DNA of 60,847 bases, counting the filler, from Dugesia japonica (taxonomy: Eukaryota): the NCBI GenBank assembly GCA_001938525.1. It is 5 parts of 5 records of this genome, joined end to end, with 100 filler letters (N's around TTAATTAATTAA, not from the genome) between each part and the next. Parts side by side here need not be neighbours in the genome. Positions count along the whole stretch, not along the records: positions 42,575 to 51,226 come from MQRL01589560.1; 4 more parts are not named here. One strand, given 5' to 3'. Below are positions 8,270-60,847 of this stretch, piece by piece. How positions within the stretch are numbered: position 1 is the first letter of the stretch; every line of letters starts with the position of its first letter. A program made the position numbers and the translations under genes. Below the pieces are notes generated by a model that worked only from the letters and a program-made list of their open reading frames with translations, was not told the DNA's origin and did no database searches.

Positions 8270-9025
8270 ATATTAAAGTGGTTAAATATAAAAGTCGTTT
8301 TCTATTACAAACAAAATGTATTATAAAAACAACAATACGACAGTTCAATCCAAAAGATATTCTGCATTATTATCAATGACTCTGCCATCTTTGACGCAAA
8401 AAATGTATGCCCTTCCTATAAGAGTCTTCCGGCTGTGAATCGAAAAACTGAGACACCCATACTTTGAATTCATCGTTGTTTTTTAATTTTTTATTGGCAA
8501 AAGTGTGTTGCATCGATCGAAACTTGTGATAATCCGATAGACCTAGGTCTAGATTATATGGCGAATTACGCAAAACTGCCCAGCGTAACTTTTTTGTTTG
8601 GTGATTTTTGCAATATGTGATCTAGCGTAATCATACAGAAATTTTATTTTGAATGTATTTACACCTTGACGGTGCAGAGCATAGTCCACACGAGTTGTTC
8701 TGTATATAGCTCTAAATTAACCGCACGACCGACTTCTAACAATTCGAAGTAGACCAAACCTTTATTATTTCACCATATACAAAGTATAATTTTTTTTCAT
8801 TGAATATCTGGCTTTGGAGTTGGTTTTGGCTGTTCACCGATGCGTAACCATTGTCGTGTTTTTGTAAAATTATTGTAACATATCCATTTTTCATCTGAAG
8901 TAACAATGGAATCAAGAAATTCGCTGTTTTTAACGTTGTGAAGAAGAATTTTGGCATTGGGGACTTGCGTCGCCTTTTTGTGGTTACTGAGTTCGTGTGA
9001 GACCCATTTTTCGCCCTGATTTACT
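8270..9025 (-). mobile_element. Old mariner transposase pseudogene (C-terminal half)
   Basis: SPYNLDLGLSDYHKFRSMQH...VWVSQFFDSQPEDSYRKGIHFLRQRWQ; degenerate PHEL and DEKW motifs upstream; likely N-terminal remnant at ~10230-10300. Confidence 0.8.
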
Positions 9026-9047
9026 TTTTTATTTATATATATATATA

Positions 9048-10227
9048 TTAGGTTGGTAAGAAAATAATTGCGGTTTTATATAATATTACTTTAAAAGTAT
9101 TTATTACTATTTTATTGTGAAATATTATTTTTGGAAGATATGTTGGATAAATATCAAATACGAGCAATATTCCTATATAAATTTAAACTGGGATATAAAG
9201 CAGCAAAGACGACTTGGAAAGTCAACAATGCATTTGGCAATGAAACTGCAATAAAAATATCGGTGCAATTTTGGTTTAAAAATTCAGGTGTAGATCAGAG
9301 CCTTGAAGATGGCGAAGGTCGGGGACGTCCATCAGAAGTTAGCAAGGACGATTTAAAGGTAATGATCGAAATAGGTCCACGCGCAACAATTCGGGAGCTT
9401 GAAAAGAATTTAGGCTTAATTCATGTAACAGCTTTATACCACCTCCATCTACTTGGAAAAGTACGGAAGCTCGATTAATGGGTTCCGCATAAATTGAACG
9501 ATTTTCAGAAAAACCCCGGTTACAAGATCTGCTCGCCAAATCTGTTTATAAATAAAACCAATCCATTTCTTGATTGTATTGTGACTTGCGACGAAAAATG
9601 AATTGTATACGACAATAGAAAGCGGGCACCGCAATGGTTGGACATATGTGAAGCACCATATCATTTTCCAAAGCCGAAATTGCATCAAAAGAAGACAATG
9701 GTAACGGTTTGGTGGTCCACAGCCGGTCTGGTTCATTACAACTTTTTAAATCATGGTGAAAGTACGAAGGCAGAAAAATATTGTCAAGAAATTGACGAAA
9801 TACCACAAATTGAAATCTATGTGCGCTGCATTAGTTAACAGAAAACATCCCATTATTCTTCACGAAAATGTCTGTCCAAATGTCGCAAAACTATCCCTGC
9901 AGAAACTAAATGATTTAGGATTTGAAAGTCTGCCTCATCCACAATACTCCCCGGACCTGTCACCAACCGACTGTCATTTTTTTATCATCTCTTCAATTTT
10001 CTTCAAGAGAAAGTCTTCCATTACGACAAAGATGTTAAAAATACCTTCCTCGAGTTCGTCGAATCCAGGACAGAGGATTTCTATTCTATTGGCATAAATA
10101 AACTTATTTCTCATTTGGAGAATTGTATTGATTGTAATGGTTCGTATTTTGAATAAAATATCTTTATGTTTTCCGAGATTCTTAGTTTTATATATTAAAA
10201 ACCGCAATTATTTTCTTACCAACCTAA
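9048..10227 (+). mobile_element. Full-length mariner element with perfect 30-bp TIRs and TA TSD; transposase disrupted
   Basis: TIR TTAGGTTGGTAAGAAAATAATTGCGGTTTT (9048-9077) and exact reverse complement (10198-10227), TA on both sides; transposase motifs VPHKL, IVTCDEK, HPQYSPDLSPTD with stops and frameshifts. Confidence 0.95.
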
Positions 10228-12420: not shown

Positions 12421-13759
12421 AACAATTAACTATTTTCCATATAAAAAGAAAATCCATATTATAAATTTTCATGTATTTTTCACTTTGTTAACAAATTTGC
12501 TGATACTGATGCACTTGACTAACCGGAACAGTGTTCCTGTCAATTTTACTGGCAATATTAAAATGTTTTCCTACAAATAATTGGATAATCAAATACTTTA
12601 ACATTATTTTATTCGTTTTAATGCATTTAATGTTTATTCTTAATTTGTTAAATTATAATTCTAGTTCTGCTGGAAATAGATTTTAATCCTTTAATAACTA
12701 TTATTGAATTATTGAAAATTAAATTATACTTCATAAGAAATATTTCCCAAAGTACATTTAATCACCTACTGAAACCTGATATTATGTAAATATTATATTT
12801 TTATTGCACCCAAAACGGGAATAGAAATTATATTAGATATGATATTTTTCTTCAATTAATTAACAGTGTTAAGAAAAAGCCATAAAACATTAATATGTAT
12901 GGATATTTGTTCCTTTAATTGTGATTTTTATTGGGTTATTTATTTAAAATAATTTTCAACTTTTAATTATATTTTAGTTATTTATTATTTAAGTTTAAGA
13001 TACTGTTTTATCAAATTTTTTAAGATTTCTGAATAAGTTTATATTAATAAAGCTTTTCTAAAATATCATTGGTAATATAATCTATTGTTTTGTCATAATG
13101 AAATATTACAAGTATTATTTGAAAATTATTTTTACACAAAGACAATAAAATTGTTCTTATTTCATTATACAGTCTTGTTTATTATTATTATTATTAATTC
13201 ATTCCTTTTTGTATTCATTAATAATAAATTTAAATATTATACGTATTCAATGCTTACTTTTATTTAAAAAATAGTATTTCTAAATTTCTTAGACAATAGT
13301 AAAAGCAGTGACTTGTAAATTAACTCACGAATAGTTAAAAATTTCGAATCTTATAAGTATCAAATGAAAAATTATTCCAGTTTTCCTTTAAGTTTAAGAT
13401 TTTTTTGTAATAGACAAAAATATTGTAGATTAGAGATTTTTAAAATTTTTTCCTGTATGAAATTGTTAAATTATAGCAGTATGTATAAATTAAAAAAAAA
13501 TATATTATTTCATTAAAAAATTTATATGAATTATACATCAATGGTTTAAATTTTTGTAAAAATACAGTTTTCTTAATCAACTTGTTATTCATTTGCTCCG
13601 AAAATCATAATCCTTGTCAATCTTCTTTAATGCATTATAAATAAAATGATCGAATGTTTCCGTATTAAATGAGCAATTTTTATTTATTGGGTCTACAAAT
13701 CAATAATCGAAATTTTTAAGCTAAAATTTTAAAATTTTGTTTAAAAAACGACACAAATT

Positions 13760-29577: not shown

Positions 29578-29677
29578 NNNNNNNNNNNNNNNNNNNNNNN
29601 NNNNNNNNNNNNNNNNNNNNNTTAATTAATTAANNNNNNNNNNNNNNNNNNNNNNNNNNNNNNNNNNNNNNNNNNNN
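29578..29677. other. Artificial scaffold linker
   Basis: 44 N + TTAATTAATTAA + 44 N. Confidence 0.97.
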
Positions 29678-42474: not shown

Positions 42475-42574
42475 NNNNNNNNNNNNNNNNNNNNNNNNNN
42501 NNNNNNNNNNNNNNNNNNTTAATTAATTAANNNNNNNNNNNNNNNNNNNNNNNNNNNNNNNNNNNNNNNNNNNN
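42475..42574. other. Artificial scaffold linker
   Basis: 44 N + TTAATTAATTAA + 44 N. Confidence 0.97.
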
Positions 42575-42730
42575 AGACATTGATAACGATTGCGCAACGT
42601 ATCCATAATTAAATAAAAGTCCCAACGAAAATAGCAATATACACAATCCATATACACAGATCTCTATTATTTCTTGTTTACTGGATCCAACTTGCTCATT
42701 TGTAGATGAAATTAATTCACTTGATTCCAT
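42575..42730 (-). CDS. 5' end of a membrane-protein gene truncated by the scaffold edge
   Basis: MESSELISSTNEQVGSSKQEIIEICVYGLCILLFSLGLLFNYGY: polar N-terminus plus one hydrophobic helix. Confidence 0.35.
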
Positions 42731-44759
42731 TAATTATTTCTCATAATCCAATTTCAAAATCAATAATGACACTTATTTTGTTCTATCAATTTTAGACTAC
42801 NNNNNCAATAAAAATCATCATCAATGATGACGTTGTAACTTGTGATTGGCAAATCAAATAATTATTTTTTTCAATAGTTTTTATTTAAGTTACGCTACAT
42901 CAAAAATCCTTAATTAGCAGCTTAATTAATTAACTATAATATGAATATTTTTAAAATCAAACTTATTATATGAAAATATTATAATAAAAAATTAAACTGA
43001 ATTAATGATCGACATTTATTAGATACGGGAAATCTGAATTTAAATACAATTATATTTTGTTTTTGAAATTCACGTTAAAAATTTATAATTTCTTATTTTT
43101 TTCAAGAAATACAACTCGTCGATGAAATCAATTAAAAAAATGTTCTTTATTGACGTGTAGTAGAATATTTCTTAATCTGGCTTATTAAAGGAAAATGAAT
43201 TTATCTTGTTGGAATGATGAAATCAATTCACTTATTGAGAACACAAATTAGACAATTGTCGAATTTAGAATTCGATATTTTTTGTCACAAAAAGTAGGAT
43301 GTTTCTTTAAATAATATTGAAGGTAGCATAATTTAAAGTTACTATATTGTGACTAATACCAAGTTAACTGTTTGTGTAGATATTGAAAGAATGGAGAATT
43401 GAATTTATAAATAATAAAGTTGAAAGTAACTTTTGTGATAGATTATAAAGTGATGCTTAAAACGAATTTTAATTTATAATACATTTAGAATCAAAAAAAA
43501 TGCAAGCGATAACAGTAGATATATAGTAGTGCCTCAAAACACTAGAAGTTATCGCGCAGCTCACCCTTCCCAGGAGAGGTGGGGAAGGGAGCTTGGAAAC
43601 ATTACGATTGTGCTATTATTTTTGTTATGTGATTTTTGGGTTAAATTTTTTTTAGGATCAGAAATTTTTGATCAGCTCAAATTTTTAAAAATCTTTTTTA
43701 TCTTTTTTTTATCCTATTGTTTGATCCTAGTGGGTGTAGGTACCTAACAAGAACTTATCTGACTCCAAAGATAAAATATTACTAGTCGTGTAGGTGAAAG
43801 TTCTTTTATTTATTATAAGTAATAATATAATAAATTAATTAAAATAACACTTTGCTTTAAATAAACTTTATTAGCTATGAACAATTTCTACAATAAAATT
43901 AATTAATTAAAATATAAGAGAAGTCTGATTTAAAATTTTTATCGCTAATATAGGTTTATTACAGACTTGCAATTTAGAATTTATTAAAATGTGTTAAGCC
44001 TTTAACAGACTTCAAAAAATAAATCAAGTCTTTAACAGACTATAAGACAATTATTATTAATAAAATTCTATTATCNNNNNNNNNNNNNNNNNNNNNNNNN
44101 NNNNNNNNNNNNNNNNNNNNNNNNNNNNNNNNNNNNNNNNNNNNNNNNNNNNNNNNNNNNAAATAACTAGTCTTTAACAGACTATAAGATAATTATTAAT
44201 TAATTTAAATAAATTCCAGCTTATGTCAAACTGGACTTAAAAATTATAATAATAACAATTATTTACCTTTTGCAAATTTCCCAAATAATTAAATTTGAAA
44301 ATCCGACAATCAATAATGATTCCAAAACAAAATTCTAAAAATAGATTTCTTTTTTTATAAAATTTTTCTCTCATAAAATCTTAATAATTATGTTGGTATT
44401 TATACCAATCAATTACACCTAAAATTTTTGTATTTATTTTATTCATTAAAACAAAATTAAAATATTCAATTTATTACTTAATTTTCTATTTTAATCTAAT
44501 ATGTTGTTAAATTATTTATTACGAATAACCTTTATCCATTAAAGTAAAACTAAAATATTTAATCTCTCAAATATTCAAAATAAACTAGGATTACTCCTAA
44601 TCATCACATTATTTTGCTCTTTTTAAATCTTTTTTTAGGAAGGAATTTTTGTTTTAATTATTAGTTGGATTTTGTGAATAATTCAAATTTTAATATTTTT
44701 TTTGGTGATTTTGGGGTGGGGAATTTTTATTTTTTGAGAAGACTTTATATTTATGTATA

Positions 44760-45250
44760 AGATGGGGCAGTCTTGATATTTTACATGCGAAGTATCTATA
44801 TTTTGCATGGTATGAAGGGATTCTCTATATTCTGCATGGTATCGGGAGTTTCTATATTTAGCATGGGGAGACTCTATATTTAGCATGGGGAGACTATATT
44901 TTGCATGATGAAATTCTAAATTTTGCATGGTATAGGGAGTGTCTACATTTAGTATGGGGAGACTCTATATTTTGCATGGGGAAACTCTATAATTTGCATG
45001 GAGAAACTCTATATTTGGCATGGGGAGACCCTATATTTAACATGCGGAGACTCTATATTTAGCATGGGAAGACTATATATTTTGCAACTCTATATTTTGC
45101 ATGAGACGACTCTGTATTTAGCATAAGGAGTTTCTATATTAAGCATGAGGAGACTCTATATTTAACATTGGGAGACTCTATATTTAGCATGGGGAGACTA
45201 TATATTTTGCATGAGATAGGGCATACTTGATATTTTGCATGACATGGGCA
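44760..45250. repeat. 22-bp minisatellite (ctctatatttagcatggggaga), about 20 degenerate units
   Basis: Directly visible tandem units. Confidence 0.9.
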
Positions 45251-45259
45251 GATTTTTTA

Positions 45260-45920
45260 TTTACATACTAACCCTGTATTATAGAGTTTATGAGTATATT
45301 ATTTACATTTTAACCGTGTAATATAAGGTTAACGAGTATATTTTTTAGTTAGAAACCGTGTACTATATGGTTTATGTTTGAATTAGCAATAGTTTATTAT
45401 ATGGATTTTTGTGTGTAATATTTACATAGTAACCTTGTATTATAGAGTTTATGAGTATATTATTTACATATTAACCATGAAATGTAAGGTTTATATGGTT
45501 ATTATTTGTATAGTTACCTTGTATTTTTTACATTAAAACCTTTTAATATATGAGTTTTGTGTGTATTATTTACATAGTAACACTGTATCATAGAGTTTAT
45601 GAGTATATTATTTGCCTATTAACCGTGTAATATAAGGTTAACAAGTGTATTATTTACTTATCAACCATGAAATATATGTTTTATGAAGTTATTATTTGCA
45701 TAGTTACCTTGTCGTATGGAGTTTATTTATAATATTCAGATAAAAAATCATAGTTACTATGTTTTATTTACATAACAACCATAAAATATATGGTTTATGA
45801 GTTTATTATTTGTGTAGTTACTTTGTATTATTTACATATTAACCCTGTATTATTTACATTTTAACCGTGTAATATAAGGTTAACGAGTGTATTATTTACA
45901 TAGTAACCGTGTATTATCTA
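45260..45920. repeat. ~40-bp minisatellite (aaccctgtattatagagtttatgagtatattatttacat...)
   Basis: Tandem degenerate units; reverse-complement copies at 49320-49640 and 50490-50570. Confidence 0.85.
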
Positions 45921-46366
45921 GTCTACAATAAAATCAGATATCAAGATCTATTTGCAACTACATGCGGTCAACTCTGTTTATTATGGTGGGAAAAAAACAA
46001 CATTGTACTTGACAATATTTATTTTTTCTTGTTTATAAAATAAATGTTTTTTATTGAAATGAAATCTTAGTTATTTATTAAAACTAAGAATAAAAAAATA
46101 AAATAACAACTTTTATTTATAAAATATTGGTAGGTAATATCCTATTAATACATGTTTTATTATTATTTTGACACGTTTTATTATCTAAAAATTAAAATTA
46201 AAATAAAATACTGTAACGTAATATGTCTGTAATGTTTTAAATTAATTTGACATTTTATAATACACACGTACTCGAATTTGATTGGTAAGATTTGATTAGT
46301 TAGATTTGCAAACCTTGAAAAAAGTTATTAATATTCATCACAATTTCAAATTATTTTTACAAAACC

Positions 46367-48779
46367 AGAGAACAAATTCAAGAGAGCTTAAAGTAATTTA
46401 TTATTATTATTAACATTATTAACTTTTATTTTTAGAATTATCGTGAATTCGTATGAACAAAATGAAAGAAGACTTATTTCAACTATGATTGCTGTAAGAT
46501 TGTTATAATTTATTATTATAATTAATTAATTATGTAATTTAGAATTTTAACGAATTTAGACATGAAGATGAAGGATCTCGAATGTTTGTGAATGGATATT
46601 CGCGTAAGTTTTTTTAAATATTTTTTATAAGTTAAATTTTATTAAAATTTTTAAAACTATTATGAAAAACCAATATTCTATGTCGCGTTCCATGATATGT
46701 TCCTTTATGTGATATTATGAAAAAATGTTCTATATTTTTTAATGAAAAAGTTCTATGCTTTTATCATTTTTCTGGAAAATTGCATCGCTAGTATGTTTTT
46801 TTTTAAGTAAAATTACATTGTCAATATGTTTTTTATATGCAAATTGCATCGCTAATATGTTTTACTTTGGAAATTTGCAACGCTAATGAGATTTTTTATT
46901 AAAAATTGCATCACTAATGGGATTTGTTTTTATTGAAAATTGTCACTCTTATGTTTTTTTATGGAAAAATATCATAGCTTATATATTTTATAAAGAAAAA
47001 ATGTTATTAAAATCATTATGTTATTATTATATTATTATTAAATTATTTTAGAACATTGCAAATTATACAACCATTGCGCAAGTGCGAGTCACAATGGTGA
47101 CTGCCATAATATCATGGAAGGATACTATGGCGAACGGTTTTATGGTAAAAATTATTTTGTGTGTCCTAATTGTAAGGTTTTAGGTTTAGGTGACTACTTA
47201 AGTGTTTATAGGACGCATATGAAACACTTATTTTGTTTTAGTAAAAGTAAAAAGAATATATTAAAATCAATANNNNNNNNNNNNNNNNNNNNNGAGTTTT
47301 ATGAAGCATCAGTAAATAAGAGAATTAAGATGGAAGAAATAATACTTAATGACGAACAAGTTGAAATAATTGTTATTGAAGATAACGTTGAAGAAATAAT
47401 AATCAAGGATGAACCAATTGAAATAATTAAATATGTTGTTGAAGAAATCATCAATGTAGAACCGGAAGAAGAAACAGTAAATATTGTTCAAAAAGAAGAT
47501 GCAATCAATACTGAATCAGATGATTGGAACAGTTTTGAAGTACTTGATGAACTTGATGAAGAAGATATAGTGTTACAACAATTTATGGATGCAGAAGAAG
47601 CGGAAAATAATAATCAAGTTGGTGGATTGATAATGAATAATGGTGACGCTATAATGTTACAACAATTTATGAATGCAGAAAAAGAGGAAAATAATAATTA
47701 AGCTGGTGGATCAGCAAAAAATACTGTGGATGATGGAGTAATTATAGAATCAGATTTGAATAGCTGTCATAAGATACTTAAAATAGATGTTTTCAGATGG
47801 AATTGTCGTGAAATAATGTTACCAGAAGCAATAGTTGCAAAATTTTTTCAGGCCATAGAAGAATGAAACAGGTTGAAATTCAATTTGGGGTGCATGTTGA
47901 GTTCAAGGCTAATAACGACAAATGCTGATGGAGAAAAAGAGGAGTTTAAGTCCTGTAGGATATCAAATAGAGCCGTTGCATTAACTGACAACTTTTTTGA
48001 AGATGGGATAAACCAATTAAAGGTAAAAATAACAATAAGAAGCAAATCAGGCTCCAGTTGGATGTTAAATCGAATACTGGAAATTAATTTTAAGATTAAA
48101 AATGTTGTAGATATTTATCGACTTTCGAGAAAAAGTTGTATTCCAACACCGAAAGATCTAGAAAAGAAAAACGCCATTCTAAACATTAAGAACAATGATA
48201 ATTACAGTTTAATTTACAGTTTTCTTGCTGTCATCAAAAGTGATCAAGCTGGGCAAAGGAATAAAAACCGCGTAACATTATATAAAAAATACATGTCGGA
48301 GCTTGTATTCAACAAAGAAGATATGCCGATGAAACTGAATGATATACCAAAGCTCGAAAAGAACAATCCAGGAGTATCCATCAATGTCCTATCATGGAAT
48401 CAAGAATCATTGGAGGATGAAGAAGATGATATAGTAATGAAACATCCAAATTTGGATATAATACACAGGTCAAAAGTGATAGATGGAGAGAAAATATATC
48501 TGTTATTACTAGAAAATAATAACAGATTTCATTACACTGCAGTAACAAACCTAAATTGACTGATAAACAGGGATAATAAAGGACATGATGTTCGTATTCG
48601 ATCAAAATGGTGTACTAACTGTCTCAACGGGTTCAAAAATAGAGAAGCTTATGAGAAGCATGGACCAATTTGCAAAATAAAATCCAGACAAGTACTATCA
48701 TGTATACTATGCAATCGGAGAAGAACTTGATTTTTTAAGGATTATTCATTAGCAATAACACCACTTTTTGTTATATATG
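46367..48779 (+). pseudogene. Spliced N-terminal half of a Polinton/adintovirus-type protein-primed DNA polymerase B (exons ~46367-46392, 46436-46493, 46543-46603, 47052-48779)
   Basis: SGSSWMLNRILEINF..SCIPTPKDLEKKNAILNIKNNDNYSLIYSFLA..PMKLNDIPKLEKNNPGVSINV..IYLLLLE..FHYTAVTNLN..WCTNCLNGF..HGPIC..PLFVIY; track ORFs 47114-47701 and 47873-48559 share one frame broken by point stops; catalytic domains absent. Confidence 0.8.
46650..46990. repeat. ~30-bp minisatellite (gaaaattgcatcgctaatatgttttt) inside the 448-nt intron
   Basis: Tandem units; related direct block at 49700-50090. Confidence 0.75.
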
Positions 48780-49319
48780 GTATGTATTTATTTATTTATA
48801 CATGTTTAAATGTTTTATTTAGATTATAATGATTATAAAAGTAAACAATGTAAAAAAACATTTGTGAACGTTTAATCGGTCCTCTTTATGATCAAAAGTG
48901 TATATTGTTGTATATTGATGAATACAATATGCTATTATTATTATTATTTTTTAGTTTTTTATTAGTTTTTTTAAAATTATTATTTATTAATTTTTTTATT
49001 ATTACAAACAAGTATTAAAGAAGAAGAAAATAAAACTAGTTGTTGTAATAATACATTCTTCTTATTTTAAATAGTTTTTTTAGTTATAAATGCAATATGT
49101 ATGCAATAGGAACGCAATTGGAATGCAAAACACATTCACTGAAAATCACATGCCTAGGATTTTTTTAAAATTNAATTNAATTTAAAACTGTCCAATATCT
49201 TTGACAAATATCATTGCAAAATATTAAAACTGACCAATGACCAACAATAATATCACGATAGTCCAACTAAAATCGCTAAAATATAAAAATGATCTAAAAC
49301 ATATTCCTCCCACATAGAA

Positions 49320-49640
49320 TATCTAAGTAAATAATACAAACAAAATACATGGAACTATGCAAATAAGCCTTATATTACTCGATTGTTATGGTAAAAAATT
49401 CAAAGTAACTATACAAATAATGTACACATAAACCTTATATTTCATGGTTTAAATGTAAATAATATACTCATAAACTCTATAATTCAGGGTTAGTATGTAA
49501 ATAATACACACAAAGCCCATAATAAACGGCCGCAATATAAAAAATACAAGGTAACAATGCAAATAATACATTCATAAACCCTATAATACAGCGTAACTAT
49601 GCAAATAATATACTCATAAACCTTATAAACTCATTAACCC
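49320..49640. repeat. Inverted copy of the 45260-45920 minisatellite
   Basis: aatgtaaataatatactcataaactctataattcagggttagtatgtaa is nearly the reverse complement of 45261-45309. Confidence 0.85.
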
Positions 49641-49699
49641 TATAGATCTCAAATTTACTTATTAGTCTTTTTATATAGGCTTATTAGCTATATATATAA

Positions 49700-50090
49700 G
49701 GAAAAATTATGTTTTTATCATTTTGTATAGACAAATTCCCAGCGAAAATGTTTTTATGAAAAATGTTCTACGTTTTAATCATTTCGAATAGATTTTCATT
49801 AATATTCTATGCTTTTATCATTTTTATAGACAATTGTCACGACATATATGTTATTTATAAAAAATTGTCGATAGTAATATATTTTTTATAGAAAAGTGTC
49901 ACTAGTAATATGTTTATATAGAAAACTGTCACAATAATATGTTTTTCATGGAAACTTGTCACTATTAATATGTTTTTATAGAAAATTGTCACTAGTAATA
50001 TGTTTTTTATAAAGAAAATTGTCATTAGTAAAATGCTTTTTATGGAAAATTGTCACTATTAATATGTTTTTATGAAAGAAATTTCTGTTT
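49700..50090. repeat. ~30-bp minisatellite (gaaaattgtcactagtaatatgtttttata)
   Basis: Eight or more visible tandem units. Confidence 0.85.
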
Positions 50091-50919
50091 TTTTATAATC
50101 TTGTAAAGAAAAGTTTTAATTTCAATATTTATTCGTGATATATTTATTCTTCAACACAGCTGCAACGCACATTCACTGAAAATCATGCGCCGAAAAATTT
50201 TTTAAATTTCCCACAAAATTATTTTTTTAAATTTCTTGACAAAAATAAAGTTTTCAAATTTCCCGTCAAAAATATAATTTTTAATTTTCCCGCAAAAAAT
50301 AAAATTTTCGAATTTCTTACTAAAAATAAATGCAATAGGTATGCAATACAGCAACACATTTGGGAATTTTAAAAAATGCAATAGGTATGCAACTCAGATG
50401 CAACACAATTGCAACACACCAACACGTGCCTGTAATTTTTAAAACTACTCAAACTCCTAAAGTAGAGCAATAATCTAAAGAAAACCTCTCCCACATAGCG
50501 TAACTATGCAAATAATACAAACAAGACATGGTAACTAAGTAAATACTCCGTAACTATGTAAATAATAAAATAATTTGTAGAAGTTTATGTTTTATTCATT
50601 TCATATTAACATAATTATAATAATTACAATTACGATTATAAGAAATTAAAAATTCAATAATTATATAGATTACTTAATTTTATATTATCATAACTGTAAT
50701 TATTATAATTATGAAAACATGTATTAGCATTCTTCATTTTAAATGCATTTATTATATTGAAATTTTAAAAAATCAATACATTTATTGATTTTTAAATTAA
50801 ATATTTACTTAATTGCATTTAAAATTAAAAATAGAGAATTAAAAATGGAGAATTTAAAAATGGTGAGTTTATTTCTTTTATATGTTAATTTAATGTAAAT
50901 TTAGATAAATTAAATAAAA

Positions 50920-51075
50920 AAATCCATTATTATATGGTCTATTATGATTAAAAATTTCCATTAATATGGTCAATTATTTTTAAAGGTTCCATAGTAATAT
51001 GGTCTATGATATTTAAAGGTTCAATAGTAATATGGTCTATAATATTTAAAGGCTCCATTAATACGGTCAAAAATG
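50920..51075. repeat. ~32-bp tandem repeat (tccat(agt)aatatggtctat.atatttaaagg), about 5 units
   Basis: Directly visible. Confidence 0.8.
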
Positions 51076-51226
51076 TCTAATATGAGTAGATAGATTGTAG
51101 CAGTCCGCAACACGCATACAATCAGTAACCCCTACCCCTACCGTGACGTAACGAAATTTAATCCTAATGTATTTAGTTGGGAATTTAAAAATTGCATCAT
51201 TAGGTAATAGTAATTAATTTGGGGTT

Positions 51227-51326
51227 NNNNNNNNNNNNNNNNNNNNNNNNNNNNNNNNNNNNNNNNNNNNTTAATTAATTAANNNNNNNNNNNNNNNNNN
51301 NNNNNNNNNNNNNNNNNNNNNNNNNN
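51227..51326. other. Artificial scaffold linker
   Basis: 44 N + TTAATTAATTAA + 44 N. Confidence 0.97.
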
Positions 51327-51341
51327 CATACCTATTAATTG

Positions 51342-51643
51342 TTTATAATGATATCCATTTTCCTTTTCTATTTACAATTTTCTTACCATACATTTTGGTA
51401 CGTTTCTTGAAATTACTCAACTGTTTCCTTTTGCAAATACTCTTTCGTTTCCTATTTTTTAGGTTTTGATTGATTGTGAGGTTTGGAAATACCTTTCAAG
51501 TTCTTAACTAAAACTTTTTAAAATTTAGTCATTTTGTTTTTTCATAGAAATTACTTGGTTTGTTTAAAATGTAATATTTTTAGGATTGAAAATATCGGTT
51601 CGTACCCTCATATCATCCGGACATTGTTGTGTAAAATCTAAAA
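51342..51643 (-). pseudogene. Second copy of the ATPase C-terminus plus basic protein
   Basis: LDFTQQCPDDMRVRTDIFNPK followed by a Lys-rich frame ending ...MYGKKIVNRKGKWISL*, paralleling 51884-52230. Confidence 0.7.
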
Positions 51644-51694
51644 NNNNNNNNNNNNNNNNNNNNNNNNNNNNNNNNNNNNNNNNNNNNNNNNNNT

Positions 51695-51848
51695 TACTCA
51701 TATTTACATTTCCGCGAACAATAGTTATAATAATTTCAAATACATCATCCATAACAAGCGTTGGAAATGATTTTAAAAATTGCTTTCTCGCTGATTTTGA
51801 AGATTGAATTAAAGATGTTAAAAATGCAATACTTCGTTGTAATTTCAT
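51695..51848 (-). CDS. Polinton small conserved protein (PW-like), truncated by N gap
   Basis: MKLQRSIAFLTSLIQSSKSARKQFLKSFPTLVMDDVFEIIITIVRGNVNM fits the LxxL...RKxxL...EIxxNxLxGNV pattern of the small gene found near the Polinton ATPase. Confidence 0.55.
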
Positions 51849-51883
51849 TTTATATTTTAATAATATAGCTTACCTGTATTTGT

Positions 51884-52087
51884 TTATAATGATTTCCATT
51901 TTCCATTTACGTTCGACATTTTCTTATCATACAGTTTCAAAAGTTTCTGAGAAATGTTCAACTGTTTACTTTGTTTCCTCTTTCCACCTTTGTTCTTTTT
52001 TACAATAAGCTTTTTTGATCGTTTTTCTTTCTTCACTTTAGATATACTCTTGATCTGATCAACTTCAGTTTTCTTAAATTTTGTCAT
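51884..52087 (-). CDS. Small Lys-rich basic protein, putative virion core or DNA-binding protein
   Basis: MTKFKKTEVDQIKSISKVKKEKRSKKLIVKKNKGGKRKQSKQ...GKWKSL, directly downstream of the ATPase. Confidence 0.5.
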   Translation of the reverse strand: MTKFKKTEVDQIKSISKVKKEKRSKKLIVKKNKGGKRKQSKQLNISQKLLKLYDKKMSNVNGKWKSL

Positions 52088-52103
52088 TTTAAAAATAATA
52101 TAA

Positions 52104-52730
52104 TTACTTAGTTTGTTTATACACAGTAACACCATCAGGATTGAAATATTGGTTCTCACCCTCTGTTCGTCTGGACATTGTTGTGTAAAGTTGAGAAAAA
52201 TATAACCATGTGAATTTATTGTTGCATCTTAAAATGATTCAATAAGAAATTGTCTATTATTAGGATAGGCCTGTCTTGCTAGAAAATCAACAACTGTTTG
52301 ATCTCTTGGATTTTTAAATATAACCAAGTATTGTACATTTAAATTACGTGTCCTTTGACTTTCTCCTTGATGGGATAAATTTTGAGTAATGAATATTATA
52401 GTCACATTACAATGTCTGTTTATTTTTGTAAATAAATTATTAAATTCCTTTTCTTTGTTTGCCTCCTGATACAGATCATCTTCTACGATAGCATCACCCG
52501 GCTTCAATCTCTTGCTCCAATTTTTATCAAATCCCTTTATAATTGTCATTTTAATGTTGCAAAATTCAGATTGTGTCAATCCATGCTCTTCATTTGCACC
52601 TCTGTGTCAATATATTTTGTTAATTTTTTTATTTAAATAAATTAGATTTTAGTAACTTGCATAAAAGTAAGGTTTTTCCACTACCACTTGGACCAACCAC
52701 TTGATAAACATCATCATTTCTCAACACCAT
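52104..52730 (-). pseudogene. A32/FtsK-HerA family DNA packaging ATPase (Polinton/adintovirus type)
   Basis: Walker A VVGPSGSGKT, Walker B AIVEDDL, RHCNVTIIFITQNL, NLNVQYLVIFKNPRD, HGYIFLNF; a few stops and frameshifts. Confidence 0.9.
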
Positions 52731-52851
52731 TTTATACAGATTTAATCAAATGCATTGTTTATAATACTATTTGTCTTTTTTTAAATGAATTAATTAATTT
52801 AATTTCTGGAAAATACATATATATACGCATATTTAATAAAAATCATTAGTA

Positions 52852-53302
52852 ATGTTAGTTAATATTAATTACAAAGGTAAAGCAAGACAAGATGTAACAA
52901 GCAAAATGAAGTTTTCTATTGGTAAATCTTCTCAATATGTGGACAAAAGTAAAAAATATACATTAATAATNNNNNNNNNNNNNNNNNNNNNNNNNNNNNN
53001 NNNNNNNNNNNNNNNNNNNNTTGGAAATGGAAAAATTATAGTATGATATAAAATATATTCGTTTGCAATCATTAACAATTGAAATCAATTTGGGGCAAGT
53101 AATCAATTTGTATAAACTAGCAAAAATAACGAAATGTTGGTTTGAACCAGAATTGTTTCCTGCATTACAACTTACAAAGTATGATCCTGTATGTGTAAAC
53201 GTATTTTCATCAGGCAAAATTGTAATACTCTGTATAAAGACTTTATACAATCAAGGATATGTAGATAATATAATTTCTGATTTATATAATTTTATTGTTT
53301 AA
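52852..53302 (+). pseudogene. TATA-binding protein (TBP)-like gene, divergent from the ATPase
   Basis: LQSLTIEINLGQVINLYKLA..CWFEPELFPALQLTKYDPVCVNVFSSGKIVIL matches the TBP repeat consensus (I.L..LA...YEPELFPGL....P.....IF.SGK.V); first repeat short and divergent, crossed by an N gap; one in-frame TAG. Confidence 0.8.
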
Positions 53303-53485
53303 TTTCACAACACGAATGCACATTGTTGCAATATGAATGCAAGTATAACAAGGCATTTCCTTATTTGATTATTACTTGTTTTTTCATTGGTCNATTTTAA
53401 TTGGTCGATTTGTGTTAAACCNAGAATTGTATATAACACATTACATATTTCATTTTAATCAGTTGTTAATTTTTAAAAAAGTAAA

Positions 53486-53789
53486 ATGAACCCAATTCAA
53501 ATCGAAGAGATCAGAAAGACATGTATTGAATCCGCTGAGTCAGATGGTCAGATGGAAGATTTGATAAATGAAAAATGTACGTATTTTATTTTTATTTATT
53601 CATTATTTATAATTTTTATTTTCAGATATTATCGCAGTTATTTTACTAAGAAAAAGAATGGCCTTGAAGAAAGAAGATTATGAGGCAATTTTGAGACAAT
53701 ATCACAAGGCGATATATCTCCGCGCTCACTGGGAGTGCTACCGATGCAGATATGGTCTACTTGAAAATCTTATCAATATTTACCAATAA
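53486..53789 (+). CDS. Intact two-exon orphan gene, 84 aa (exons 53486-53576, 53626-53789)
   Basis: 49-nt GTACGT..TTTCAG intron; spliced frame open from ATG to TAA (…YLRAHWECYRCRYGLLENLINIYQ*); AATAAA overlaps the stop. Confidence 0.65.
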
Positions 53790-54147
53790 ATGTTATTTGT
53801 AAAATTATTTCTTTTTTATTTTGTTTAGTTACTTTGATAGTTATTATTTATATGAGTTTTTTAAGTAATTTATTAGTCACAAAGTTTTTATGTAGTAGTT
53901 ATTTAATAGAATTTTATTTAACTTAAGGTTTTTCATTTGATAGATATTATAATTTTAACTAGAGTTTGCTATATATAAATTATAATAAACAATAACAGTT
54001 ATTTATTAATAATTGTTATTTAATAGAGTTTTTTATTATTTAGAGATAAGTTTTTTATTTAGTTAATGTGTTTGGTAAATATTATTATTTAAATAGTGTT
54101 AATAAAAAATACAAATAAATAAATAACCTTTATTCTAATAATAACAT

Positions 54148-54578
54148 TTATAAAATGTCTCGAATTTTCTAAATTGGAGAGTTTACTTTTCTATTAATTG
54201 AGTTAATGTTCTCTGCATTTTTCTTGACTCCTTGTATTTCCACCTGGATTATATATTGCTAAGATATTTCGAATACAATCGATTTTGATTCACTGTAATT
54301 GATGAAAACTGTATCCTTTATTGTAATCGTTGATTCAATTCTTTGGAATAATAAATTCAAAGTATTCATGTCTTTGGAACCGATATCGGATATCAACACA
54401 CTATACGTAGATGGTTGTATCTTCACAGGTTCCTAAATGAAAATATTAAATAATAAAATAAATAAATGCATATACTCGAAACATATATACTATTGGTATC
54501 TTCAGGAATTTCATTTGGATTCCATGAAATTCCGTAGGCTTTCCGTAATCCACAGCGATGGTCATAACATTATCTTTT
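54148..54578 (-). pseudogene. Spliced orphan gene, paralog of 60101-60570
   Basis: 58-nt intron 54490-54433; EPVKIQPSTYSVLISDIGSKDMNTLN...IKDTVFIN...YIIQVEIQGVKK; one in-frame stop. Confidence 0.5.
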
Positions 54579-56189
54579 NNNNNNNNNNNNNNNNNNNNNN
54601 NNNNNAAATAATGAAAATTTATTAAATGTTTTTGCTTTTATACTCAGTGTTGATAATTATTTAATGTATTGCTTGTATTTATTGCTTTTATTGGTTGAAA
54701 TTGTGATACTTTGATTATTATCATGTTTTGATTGGTATTTATTTGTTAAAACAATTTAAGTGCAATACAAATGCAAAACCACTACAATTTAAACAAAGCA
54801 TTTGCAACTTTTTGCTTTGTTGAATTTAAATGGACAAGTTGTGTTACATAAACTTTTTATATAAAGCAATTCAATTTTTTATATGCATAAATACTATTTC
54901 AAAATGATTTTAAAAATGGAGATGAAATAACTGAACGAGGTAAAGTTTTTATTATTATAGTTGTTGGGATGAAACACCTGATTGTAGAAGAAAGCCACAG
55001 TCAGGGACCCAAATCATAAAATAATGAATAAGGGTGTTGGAAAAGGAAAGGGGTTAAGATTAATCTCGATGATGGAAAAAGTGCATTGACATAAAATGGG
55101 GAAAATGAAAATACTGAAAGAAGGAATCAAATGGGTAACATAGTGGTTGAAATCAAGTTATTAATTAGGAGAATTATANTTATTAAAAAGAAAAATAAGA
55201 AAATGGTTAAGAAAATAATAATTAATTAATTTATCNCAAAAACGAATTAAAATTAGACAAAAATCAGTTTTGGTCGATTAACTCCACTCAGGAGTATCAT
55301 AAGGATCTGTAGCAAGAAAATCTGAAAAGAAAATGACAAGGAGCAATAGGATTTTGCAACCGGAAAATCTTATCATCAGGAGGGTTTCTACAAGGGTTGG
55401 AAGAATGGGCCAATGAGAGACCAGAAAAAGAAAATAAAACAAAGACCAGAAAATTACATGGCAACTTAAAAATAGCCATCAATAGACGTTCTAAAAGTCT
55501 TGGAAAAATTGGAAAATCAGCACCATCGCCAATAGAAAACGAGAAATTTTAATTAAAAATAGAAAGCCAATGGCGATGGTGCCAAGATACGTCGGAAAAT
55601 GCTATAAAAGCCCCCCTGATTTTAGACAAAAATCAATCACTTTTCTATAAAATTTAAGCGTTGGAAACTATTGTCCAATTATCTAGTAAATGATATAAAG
55701 AAAAAACTTGTCTATTATTCAATCATAACTTGGTTAACAAATTATTCACCTATTGATAGCAGGGAAAATTTGTCGTATTATTTAAAAGAATTAAGTAATG
55801 ATACCATTAAATCTCACCAAAATTAATTTTAATTAAACGGAAATCAGGAACAGAAGTACACCGACTATATCAAAAGAATCCGTGATTATTGGAAACATAC
55901 ACAAAACCAATCCGTTGCAGAAAGCCGAAATTATTTACAAAATAAATTTTATACCTTTGATTAAATCATGATAATTAGAGTATTTAGCTATGTTAACTAT
56001 ATTCAATGTTATGCAAAAATATTATTAAGTAACATTTAGTCGTGTTAAATATAATGGGTTTATAAAATTAAATGGGTTTTATAAAAATGGATTATGAGAA
56101 ATGTATTTATTTATAGAAAAAAACTGTTACATGAAATTCAATTATGATATAAATATTTTTACACTTTATGTAATTTGATTAATAAAGAA

Positions 56190-57510
56190 TTACAATAAAT
56201 AAAAAACCGAAGTCATACATGTATTTGTTTTTTCTGTGCCAACTTCAATCAGAATGATTTCATTATTCCCACCAATAGTTCTTAATAACGGAAAAATCCT
56301 TGTCCTGATCATGCAAATTAGCTTAACACGCCTCATGTGCGCTATAGTAGAAAAGTTCATTAGATCAAATCGCGAGAAACAGAAAATTAAATTTAAATCC
56401 AATTGAGATGCTTCGTGAACAAATCAACTCCATCTTGTAATATTTATAGTCCGACTTAGATGATCATCATCGATTAATCCCGCAGTTATATATTTTTTTT
56501 ATCAGGACATTTTAAAATCGGTAGTTAAATTCCATAGAATTGCAATAAACCACTCATCATTAGTAATCGTCGATTGACACGCAAACCAGTCACATACACT
56601 GCTGCATAAACAAATCATCTGGCGTGTCCTCCGGAATCTCGATAGAAGTAGTAGGTATGTGAAAAATAAGGGAACTGCTCACCACTCTAACTCGACTGTC
56701 ATCTAGGCCAATAATATAGACGCAGTAGTTGTTGATTGAAACTGTTAAATCTGACTCATACTTCATTTCCATGACCTTATGTATCCACGATATGCTAATT
56801 TTTCTACAGTAAGAGGCATAGGTAATACCTTGCTCACCAGATAATCATAATTTTTCTCTCAAGAAAATAATAACCAGTCCTCCAGACCATGATGGAGATT
56901 ACTGATATTGATCAGTTGGCATATATGAAATGGAAATCTAGTGAAGGAGTGTTTTCTTTATTGTGTAGCATATTAAATTTATTAAAATTAGCATTTCTCT
57001 GATTAATATCTAGAACATCAATTACATTGTTATTAATTTAATTATTGTTGGCGCACAATTTCTTTTACTCTTATTATGGCTGTTTAAGCATTATTATCAG
57101 TTTTGCTCAGGTCACTGGTATGGTGGGGAGTTTAATGTTTAGCAAGATTAACTTCATTATGAGTTCCTACTATTTTCACCATTAGTAATGGTAGTATTGG
57201 ATCAGCTATTGTTTTTTAACCCTTACTATTATTATGGTTGATACAATCACTATTATCAAGATGAATAATATTATTATTCCTCCTAAATATCATCATCATC
57301 AATATAACTAACGTCTTCATTATTATGATTATTATTTTTCATGCTATTGATAAATGCAATATCCGAATTATTATTACCATTTATCATCATTGTCTTCTCT
57401 CTATCATCATGATTGTTGTTAGTATGGCTTTTATTATTACCAAACTAGTATCAACGCAAGCATTGGCTATTATACTTAGCGCCCTGTTGCTGTTATTGCA
57501 TTCGTAGCTA
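56190..57510 (-). pseudogene. Decayed large orphan ORF with an Asn/Asp-rich N-terminal region
   Basis: Consecutive minus-strand coding-like fragments (56190-56402, 56590-56772) preceded by an AAT/GAT-rich stretch. Confidence 0.3.
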
Positions 57511-57599
57511 AGACCAATTTATAACGAAAAGTGATCACCTTACCCACCGATTTGAATTATATACACTTTGTTAAATCTCTCTTATTTTTTATATTTATC

Positions 57600-59375
57600 A
57601 GGAAATCAAACCATATAACTGAAGTTTTATTAAAGATGTTAAGGGTAATTCTCAAAGAAAGATATAAGGCTAGTAGGAGGCAGCTTTTAGCTTACATTTT
57701 CTCTAATGGGGCAATCAAACATCCCGACGAAACTGATCTAGAGTGCTTTGTCGAGTTATTTCCGTTAAACTTTAATGTAGATATTGATGAGGAGGACTAG
57801 TCATAATGCTGAGCGCACCTCAGCCCTTTTATGTGGATATTTATAAAAATAAATAACAATTCAACTAAATCGTTGTATTTATCTTTATTTTATTTTTCAC
57901 ATTATATATTTTACCCAACTTATGTACGATAAAAAATCATCTAACGTTTACAGTGGAACACAAAGGGGAAGTTTTACTAGATCGCCGAACCGGTAGAACC
58001 ATATTAAAGCGTTACAAAAATTTTCATAGCCGTAACGCCGGAGTTCTAGTGGACAGACCAACCTACCGACCGAGGTAGCCGAGGAAGAAAGACGGTGGGA
58101 CGCTACCGAGCGTCACGCCTACTATGACTGGAAAGGTCACAACCATGCTTGGGCGGTTTATAATGCGGTGACCTCTACTCAGATAGGCACCAACGGAGAG
58201 CCTCAGATTATTCGTGAATCGCACGAAGGACCCTGGCTTGTAGGTGTCACCACAAGTCATCTCCCTCCGGTTTACAACTTAATGGCGTTTGTTCATAATA
58301 ATTTATGGAACATTAGGAACGTATCAGATAGTAAAAATAAAGAAAATACAGAATCGACTCAAATTTAATTCCTAAGAGTATTGTGGTTATTGCTTTATTG
58401 TTCTAGTAAATGTTTAGCCCTTATTAATCGTTTCATTAAGTAAGCGTTTGCGTTGTGTTCATGCATTTAACTCTATTATTAAATAAATTTCCGACTTTTG
58501 TGCGTATATGTATTCAAAGGTCTATCGTTTGTTAATTGATAATCTAAACTTTATATTATAGTGCATTCCTCTCTTATTTGCTCAGTGGGCCCAATTAAAA
58601 ATGTGCGGAAGTCTAGCGAAGATCTCAAAATGACCTGGGATCTATATAATTTAGCTAAATGTATATCGGAGGCTGATGTGGCTACTGCAAATGCTAAGGT
58701 TAAAAAGATACAAATCAAAATGCGTAGCTTTTTGTAAGGAGGCAGAAGCCTCACACACACAAGAAAGGCTCTGGAAAGCCCAGTTAGAATCTCTTGATGA
58801 AATCATCCGGTCCCTCTATGACCGAGAAAATAAACTGGTTTTGGATATCCTCATATTGAAAAAGGCCATGCCTCTTGAACCTTTAATGGTAGACAAGGCT
58901 ACTCAAACATTGCGACCATAAATTATTCGACACTCATTAATTTTCGTAAATAAATACTTTTGATTTAAATTGTCTCGTTTTCGTTCTACCCTATTATTCA
59001 ATAAAATCGGCTCTAATAATTATTCATTTTCTATTTTAAATTTTTGTTAACTGTTTTAGTGCCACGAATTTGCCTTCACGTATCCGTAGATGTCATAGGT
59101 TGATTCAGAAATTATTGTTGGAGAGACACATTAAGCGAAGAAATGAATGCGCTCTCCTAAGGCATCTATGACAAAGGAACTGCCTGATAAAAAAGATGGA
59201 CGTTATATTAAAGAAACAAGGCGAGTTAGCTGAGCAGGCTAAGCTATTATTGCAATACAAAATTAATTTCCTACAGCATAACATAGACGACCTATCAAAA
59301 CAATTTGGTAATGAAACGTGGATTCGTTGGAATGACAACGACGACGAAGCCACCTTTAACTTTTTAGACGAGTAG
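57600..59375 (+). pseudogene. Cluster of co-oriented GC-richer orphan ORF fragments, two of them coiled-coil
   Basis: Blocks ending near 57800, 58368, 58921 and 59374, most followed by AT-rich spacers with AATAAA-like signals. Confidence 0.4.
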
Positions 59376-59643
59376 CCTATCCAGTGGTTAGACCCGGGTG
59401 ACCTCAAATTTTTGTAAATCTTTCTAAATAAATACTTGTAATAGTGAATTCTCAATTGATTTATTAACTACCNNNNNNNNNNNNNNNNNNNNCCAGCGAA
59501 AGGTATGCGTGAGTGCACCTCAAGTAAGCGTTGGAGGTCAACCTCTCCATACTGAAAATCTAAATAGGGCTGTTTTTCCCCAGCCGCGCTTTTTCTACCA
59601 CAAACTCAGGTGGGACGACAACATAGTTATTATTTATTTTCAG

Positions 59644-60035
59644 ATCTTAAAGGAAGAATAATTAATGAAATGCATCCAGAATACGATAGAAAATCAAAAC
59701 TGTTGGAAGAAGATAAATATAGGTACTACATTCTTGAAAAAGAGATGATCGATATCAAGGATGTATTATACTATTTTGAAAGCGAATTCAAAATATTAAC
59801 ACTATGTGAAAACGATCCATGTCCANNNNNNNNNNNNNNNNNNNNNNNNNNNNNNNNNNNNNNNNNNNNNNNNNNNNNNNNNNNNNNNNNNNNNNNNNNN
59901 NNNNNNNNNNNNNNNNNNNNNNNNNNNNNNNNNNNNNNNNNNNNNNNNNNNNNNNNNNNNNNNNNNNNNNNNNNNNNNNNNNNNNNAAAAATATTTAACA
60001 AAAAAAGATATTATCAATTCTTGATAAAAGATTGA
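59644..60035 (+). CDS. Orphan exon or ORF crossed by an N gap
   Basis: Acceptor TTTTCAG| then DLKGRIINEMHPEYDRKSKLLEEDKYRYYILEKEMIDIKDVLYYFE. Confidence 0.35.
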
Positions 60036-60100
60036 TGATTATTATCTTGTCCTCTGAACTGATTTCCAATATTTGCATATTGAATAGATATATTTTTAGT

Positions 60101-60570
60101 TTAACCGGATCCTAAATTAACAGTAATAATAATTACAAATTTTACTTGGAATGCATAAATAATCGGCTTTAGGAAGAAATTCATCTTGAACTGATGATAA
60201 TCTCGATTCATTCCAGAATCAATAACAATAGTCATCATATTTTCCTTGGTAAGGATTACTTGTTGCATGCATATTTCAGCCTTTTTAAACTCCCAAATAG
60301 ATTTTGTGACATTTCTAATTTTTTTGTATCCTAATATGTTCATTATGATCATATATATTTTAATTATTATTCTCTTAGAATCAATGTAAGCACTATCTTT
60401 TATTCGCATGTTATCGTCAAATTTTGATAGAATCTCATTAATAGCTGTTTGATCAGCCTTGCTAATGTTTGTTAACTGCAAGCTGTATTTTGTTTTCAGT
60501 ACATTTACTTGTTCCTAAATGAAAAATTAATAATTGTAATGATAAAAGTAAATGTTACTTCAAACGAATA
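60101..60570 (-). CDS. Spliced orphan gene, paralog of 54148-54578
   Basis: 44-nt intron 60558-60515; EQVNVLKTKYSLQLTNISKADQTAINEIL...IKDSAYID...YMIIMNILGYKK...SIWEF. Confidence 0.5.
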
Positions 60571-60847
60571 ANNNNNNNNNNNNNNNNNNNNNNNNNNNNN
60601 NNNNNNNNNNNNNNNTTTGGTTTATGTAGTAACTACTTATGTGTGGGCATGATTTGAAATGCTTTAGATTATATAATATGCGCGATTAAACCAGTACAAT
60701 ATCACCCATCTCAAATGTGTTCAACAAAGATTAACTATATATTAGCTATAATATTTATGGAAATAAATTTTTTATATCTTATAATGCTTTTATGTTTCAG
60801 TACAATGAAACATGTTTTGAGAAAAGTAAAAATATATTCTTAAAGTT

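Follow-up and report, generated by a model that had tools for sequence, protein, structure and literature searches.

The 60,847-nt window (the whole stretch of Dugesia japonica DNA analysed, from assembly GCA_001938525.1) harbors a decayed, 3′-truncated Polinton/Maverick (adintovirus-type) protein-primed DNA polymerase (pPolB) gene, and, judging from its sequence, in the lineage to which it belongs polB is probably transcribed by Pol II and spliced. The three introns at its 5′ end are very probably real spliceosomal introns of that transcript. In an active element, whether integrated or episomal, transcription would take place in the nucleus by Pol II, and the host spliceosome would remove the three introns, joining the leader exons to the polB exon. 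Translation from exon 2 or 3 would then yield a Cys/His module, the terminal protein (TP), the vOTU domain, and the rest of pPolB, with the vOTU cleaving the TP, as proposed for the pPolB family in the available text of 10.1101/2024.03.18.585575. Intron 3 would have been lengthened later by a repeat. The features of the gene are as follows.

46369..46392, plus strand: exon 1, 5′ end uncertain, without an ATG
46393..46435, plus strand: intron 1, 43 nt, GTAATT..TTTTAG, phase 2, 9% GC
46436..46493, plus strand: exon 2, open in phase, with an in-frame candidate start at ATG 46485
46494..46542, plus strand: intron 2, 49 nt, GTAAGA..ATTTAG, phase 0, 10% GC
46543..46603, plus strand: exon 3, open in phase, with an in-frame candidate start at ATG 46582
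46604..47051, plus strand: intron 3, 448 nt, GTAAGT..TTTTAG, phase 1
46731..47039, plus strand: segment of a 31-nt tandem array within intron 3, about 69% like 49845-50148 and in the same orientation
47052..48779, plus strand: exon 4, decayed N-terminal half of pPolB, with a 21-N gap at 47273-47293
47057..47272, plus strand: Cys/His-rich module of about 70 aa, pattern C-C-H-C..YY..CxxC..HxxH, common to the polB clade
47294..47760, plus strand: acidic low-complexity linker containing an 84-nt internal duplication
47762..48109, plus strand: terminal-protein domain, its little-finger/PAD fold modelled in relative P0002
48152..48559, plus strand: vOTU-like domain, its OTU fold modelled in P0002
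48611..48673, plus strand: zinc-finger-like motif CxxC..H..C, assigned by sequence
48780..48822, plus strand: intron-like segment, 43 nt, G/GTATGT..TTTTAG, 14% GC, starting exactly at VIY of the ExoI motif, the end of polB homology
48823..48875, plus strand: sequence unlike polymerase that, read in phase with the 48780 donor, reaches a stop after 16 codons

The first-pass annotation had proposed the three 5′ introns, and they are found where it placed them, with phases 2, 0, and 1; translation exon by exon reproduces its peptides and runs into the polB frame. Its suggestion of an intronised polB stands for the 5′ end, as sequence statistics and relatives indicate. GT-AG ends, host-like length and composition, and a kept frame, as in U2-type introns, are present in all three. 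The GC content is 9, 10, 19, and 14% in introns 1–4 (the last being 48780-48822) versus 28–33% in the exons, and the introns of the GH47 host gene in the window are 39 and 40 nt long, GT-AG, and AT-rich. Intron 3 is long because the 31-nt array sits inside it. Introns 1 and 2 and 48780-48822 have no similar copy within the window, and none of the short introns is a repeat of another.

The chain searched for consists of two introns of 40–55 nt followed by a third donor, with the exons open and consistent in phase. Such a chain occurs once on the plus strand of the window and never on the minus strand, in 0 of 60 block-wise dinucleotide-shuffled windows, and in 0 of 5000 shuffles of 46340-46640, a significance that is somewhat overstated since the donor pattern was picked post hoc to include the observed donors. 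From composition alone, the probability of an open frame is 0.14 for exon 2 and 0.13 for exon 3. Between 46640 and 47130 there are 10 AGs, and the sole TT[TC]AG among them, at 47051, is the first after the 46604 donor and lies in the polB frame. The peptides of exons 1–3 gave no significant match to 151 proteins and 23 loci. Upstream of exon 1 are a candidate acceptor ending at 46368 and a candidate donor at 46285, such that exon 1 may be an untranslated leader or the continuation of a further upstream exon. An upstream exon with an ATG, sought via donors 46134, 46218, 46229, and 46285, amounts to a two-codon start before 46229 and is unconvincing.

The position of the Cys/His module bears on where translation began. 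The module begins at 47057, 5 nt past the 47051 acceptor, while the first in-frame ATG (47114) is 19 codons into it, and a stop at 47039 closes the frame upstream. The module residues C, C, H, and C ahead of ATG 47114 are kept in the window copy; thus, the module would have been translated from a start further up, most likely in exon 2 or 3 (ATG 46485 or 46582) or still further upstream. In four relatives (P0002, P0004, P0013, and P0054), the gene call begins at the internal Met that corresponds to ATG 47114, which is what an intron-blind gene caller would give on the window, and these protein calls, taken alone, fit a shared splice. In P0036, P0068, and L001, the initial Met precedes the first Cys by 2–4 residues, without a coding intron there. 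A second, degenerate copy of the module was sought upstream of polB, and none was found.

Introns are also present in polB at 5 of the 23 related loci (L001, L004, L006, L021, and L022), which represent three lineages. L001 has three introns of 52, 44, and 52 nt, with 8–19% GC and lengths that are all indivisible by 3. They lie in the N-terminal part of polB, following the Cys/His module rather than preceding it, and the spliced frame of L001, 447-2569, is open without stops. L021 (1444-3100) harbors at least five short introns of 32–78 nt in consistent phase, with the same strings in L022, and two of these fall within conserved motifs past the EndoVII insertion. L004 has one in-phase intron, to which L006 has a candidate counterpart by sequence, and L003 has an acceptor only. 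Long, unbroken frames from an ATG are found in L005, L008, L011, L013, L014, L015, and L017, with an AG a few bases ahead of the polB ATG in L008 and L011. The sister of L001 in the tree is P0129/P0157 (support 0.999), whose called proteins open with a peptide resembling an intron tail at the third acceptor of L001, suggesting that this site was inherited. None of the intron-bearing loci shares an intron position with the window. By these comparisons, relatives that look intact do have introns in polB, and these are labile from one lineage to another.

Two other readings of the 5′ end have to be weighed. The introns could be real but reside in an untranslated leader, or in a separate small upstream gene, polB's own ATG before the first Cys having been lost in decay. 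This is unlikely, although P0036, P0068, and L001 do start right ahead of the first Cys, the window copy is decayed with three stops, the exon 1–3 peptides are without a homologue, and the AG just before the polB ATG in L008 and L011 is as expected of a leader intron; spliced small genes also lie nearby, those near the ATPase carrying introns of 43–49 nt. Such a leader would require loss of the ATG together with an acceptor that happens to fall in the polB phase (1 in 3) and exons 2 and 3 that are both open at the probabilities given above; four relatives being called from the internal Met too also speaks against it. It is very improbable that the splice signals arose by chance in very AT-rich DNA next to an ordinary intronless polB relic. 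The window is about 25% GC as a whole, the patterns were set post hoc, and lone short GT-AG candidates are common by chance (33 seen versus 27 expected); however, the full chain appears in none of the shuffles, GC content alternates with the exon and intron calls, and the third acceptor is in phase with the conserved module right next to it. A spliced polB transcript with its start in the upstream exons is the reading retained here.

Exon 4 contains in-frame stops at 47699, 47864, and 48557 as well as frame breaks near 48690-48740, because of which the window copy is regarded as a fossil; on this sequence evidence, it is dead and its protein no longer made. The putative catalytic Cys position of the vOTU is altered as well. 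This decay had gone unnoticed in the earlier annotation, and the “spliced derivative” that was thought to keep only the TP and zinc-finger part finds no support as a working gene in this copy in view of the three stops, the frame breaks, and the altered vOTU position. The retained part is also larger, comprising, in order, the Cys/His module, linker, TP, vOTU, and zinc finger, and ending at the start of ExoI. Homology to polB ends at 48781, and neither the exonuclease nor the catalytic palm is present in 42575-60570. Alignment of the window copy with P0002 (E 1.5e-66) gives 42% identity over 521 columns and 62% over the core. These data are consistent with a pPolB of the Polinton/adintovirus type that has decayed and whose lineage bears introns. 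The Cys/His module is probably zinc-binding, given its sequence pattern. It has no Pfam or PDB match, Foldseek with its model (pLDDT 73) gave no PDB match at E<=0.001, and an atlas look-up returned generic C2H2-like leads only.

The architecture of the missing half can be gauged from the relatives. A FastTree phylogeny of 39 of 154 sequences, picked by score, plus the locus ORFs places the window copy in a clade (support 0.96) that opens with the module of about 70 aa, and P0002 is its sister (support 0.84). The module is found in tandem ahead of the TP domain in P0007/P0158 (residues 30-160), P0153 (2-140), and P0016 (133-259). In the model of P0002 (pLDDT 82.5), residues 149-256 adopt a little-finger/PAD fold and residues 271-402 an OTU fold, while residues 466-634 form an exonuclease. 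The PAD fold aligns to 4IR1 with Z 8.4 (rmsd 2.4, 90 aligned), the OTU fold to Otu2 with Z 7.1 (rmsd 3.6, 95 aligned), and the exonuclease with Z up to 5.8; the Z range of 5.8–8.4 is modest, and the domain order carries the case. The P0002 model gave no Foldseek match at E<=0.001. As modelled, this closest relative has the TP-vOTU-EXO order of polinton pPolB. P0004 and P0010 match PF03175, relatives also match EndoVII (as an insertion), and full-length relatives such as P0158 keep the palm and exonuclease. The exon-4 N-terminus alone as a query yielded 0 of 2 candidates, and profile scans found 0 relatives in viral contigs and 0 of 56 stretches in genome contigs; one profile, intended for the Cys/His module, has 637 positions and is dominated by P0002.

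A fourth splice site coincides with the end of polB homology. The G/GTATGT donor at 48780 and the TTTTAG acceptor ending at 48822 are both present exactly there, as first described, and the sequence after 48822 is indeed not polymerase-like: a profile built from 24 full-length tails gave a best E of 0.49, and the idea that it is the polB C-terminus was rejected. For any chosen point, the probability that a complete candidate for a short intron starts no more than 5 positions away is 0.0014. No evidence emerged that the 48780 donor splices to an (A)DFE exon. There is no such exon in 42575-60570, where the pattern matches only at unrelated places, and none of the 157 relatives ends at the ExoI motif, through which 88 run unbroken; the sister P0002 and L001 are continuous there.

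Among the readings of this site, the likeliest, at somewhat less than an even chance, is that this sub-lineage once carried an intron within the ExoI motif as well and that the remainder of polB was deleted later, leaving other sequence after the acceptor. The deletion perhaps also produced a fusion to another intron. A quite improbable alternative is that 48780-48822 and the short exon form a regulated alternative 3′ end, yielding a TP-vOTU-zinc-finger protein in one form and, via a distal (A)DFE exon since lost, the full polymerase in the other. It draws on the exact coincidence of the intron candidate with the end of homology, and TP became a stand-alone protein on more than one occasion in polintons and adenoviruses, according to the available part of 10.1101/2024.03.18.585575. 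It is opposed by the absence of an (A)DFE exon, by the continuity of P0002 and L001 and the lack of relatives that end at the motif, and by the dead state of the window copy. The coincidence of site and breakpoint is the sole support for a TP-only alternative 3′ exon. A long shot, by analogy, is an animal Polinton-like lineage with host splicing at both polB ends, in the manner of adenovirus E2B, in which a leader supplies the start and an alternative splice between TP-vOTU and exonuclease gives either TP or full polymerase. If true, splicing at both ends would represent an intermediate, at the level of the transcript, linking the fused polinton pPolB to the split TP and polymerase of adenoviruses. 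Deletion downstream of an ExoI-motif intron is the reading followed here.

Polinton pPolB is organised as TP-vOTU-EXO-PALM in the portions available of 10.1101/2024.03.18.585575 and PMC8502044. The window polB resembles the Polinton/Maverick type in the succession of TP (LF/PAD), vOTU, and exonuclease in P0002, for which 4IR1 is the same reference structure as in the former source, and in the PF03175 matches of P0004 and P0010. In contrast to that type, it has coding or leader introns and an N-terminal Cys/His module, its relatives have the EndoVII insertion, and the window holds a TBP-like gene. Core genes are described as intronless in intact vertebrate Mavericks (PMC8097293, in part) and in a nematode Maverick (10.1101/2022.07.12.499685, in part), and the accessible section of the vertebrate survey takes the ‘introns’ detected there as decay (PMC8097293). 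Intronless core ORFs are not what is seen here, with three in-phase introns 5′ of the window polB and introns at 5 of the 23 related loci. Dinoflagellate Maverick/Polinton-like elements contain introner introns, which are transposon-derived and mostly acquired post-integration (from the available text of PMC12166617 and PMC11957031). Both cases involve spliceosomal introns inside integrated Polinton-like elements; unlike introners, the short introns of the window are not mutual repeats, and in intact relatives the spliced frames stay open. No description of spliceosomal introns in animal Polinton polB was found in the literature outside subscription journals, Repbase entries, and supplements, including the accessible portions of 10.1101/2023.08.22.554363, PMC11296320, PMC8502044, PMC12220804, and PMC7851563 for pPolB generally.

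The E2B mRNAs of adenoviruses offer an analogy, and an analogy only, in that a short upstream exon supplies the start. The adenovirus polymerase uses the same leader as pTP. In HAdV-37, a 9-nt upstream exon of pTP, 13495-13503, is annotated as joined to 8325-10223 (PMC2397415, as far as available), and adenoviruses have been argued to derive from polintons (10.1101/2024.03.18.585575, likewise). The two differ in that TP is fused in the window polB, whereas in adenovirus TP is separate and an inactive vOTU resides on the polymerase.

If some lineages splice polB, ORF-based tools would cut its N-terminus short or call live elements dead, and transcription of the elements in the nucleus by host machinery would be required. 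With intron positions that differ between close lineages, these elements would then be a system in which intron gain is fast. An undescribed feature of the clade is the Cys/His module, sometimes in tandem, that precedes the terminal protein. The window copy is a fossil and hence a weak specimen for the claim that polB is spliced.

The surroundings of the fragment include the following.

16371-16470, 29578-29677, 42475-42574, and 51227-51326: joins, each of 44 N, a 12-nt all-frame stop spacer, and 44 N
20100-20460 and 25300-25700, minus strand: exons of a GH47 (EDEM-like) host gene, spread apart by inserted transposons
45257..45925, no strand assigned: 42-nt tandem array, with an inverted counterpart at 49371-49628 (up to 90% over 90 nt)
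52130..52730, minus strand: A32-like packaging ATPase, decayed and intronless, Walker A at 52694 (Pox_A32 E 0.0026, below the curated cut-off)
52852..53302, plus strand: TBP-like gene (PF00352 E 6.5e-9), decayed and intronless, in head-to-head orientation to the ATPase

The window is crowded with broken transposons (hAT, mariner, and LTR). A gap or join is also found at 60572, and the joins are artefacts of assembly, not sequence features. The gap at 51227-51326 separates the ATPase and the TBP-like gene from polB; as joined, both lie 3–4 kb from it, and the parts need not be neighbours in the genome. TBP-like genes are uncommon in Polinton-like elements and are listed in the legend of the MELD-virus figure in PMC8502044, seen in part. 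No element termini, terminal inverted repeats, or 6-bp target-site duplication were identified around the fragment. Stop-free ORF pieces gave no convincing Pfam or PHROG match to integrase, adenain protease, or capsid proteins in the window, which ends at 60847; the best match was phrog_27119, a virion protein (E 0.015), for a 137-aa ORF at 60104-60514 on the minus strand, for which the atlas held no usable match.

The inverted 42-nt arrays are possible subterminal repeats. Clusters of tandem arrays with 22-, 42-, 31-, 27-, and 33-nt units flank the polB fragment at 44790-45925 and 49371-51068. At 51330-52230 (minus strand), the 3′ end of the ATPase and a small Lys-rich ORF are duplicated in tandem, and each copy of the ATPase 3′ end has a donor-like AG/GT just past its stop (51873 and about 51331); a short ORF lies between the two. 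A small gene at 53486-53770 (plus strand) has a canonical 49-nt intron, 53577-53625, and a broken gene at 54150-54580 (minus strand) has a 43-nt intron, 54475-54433; neither matches a known family.
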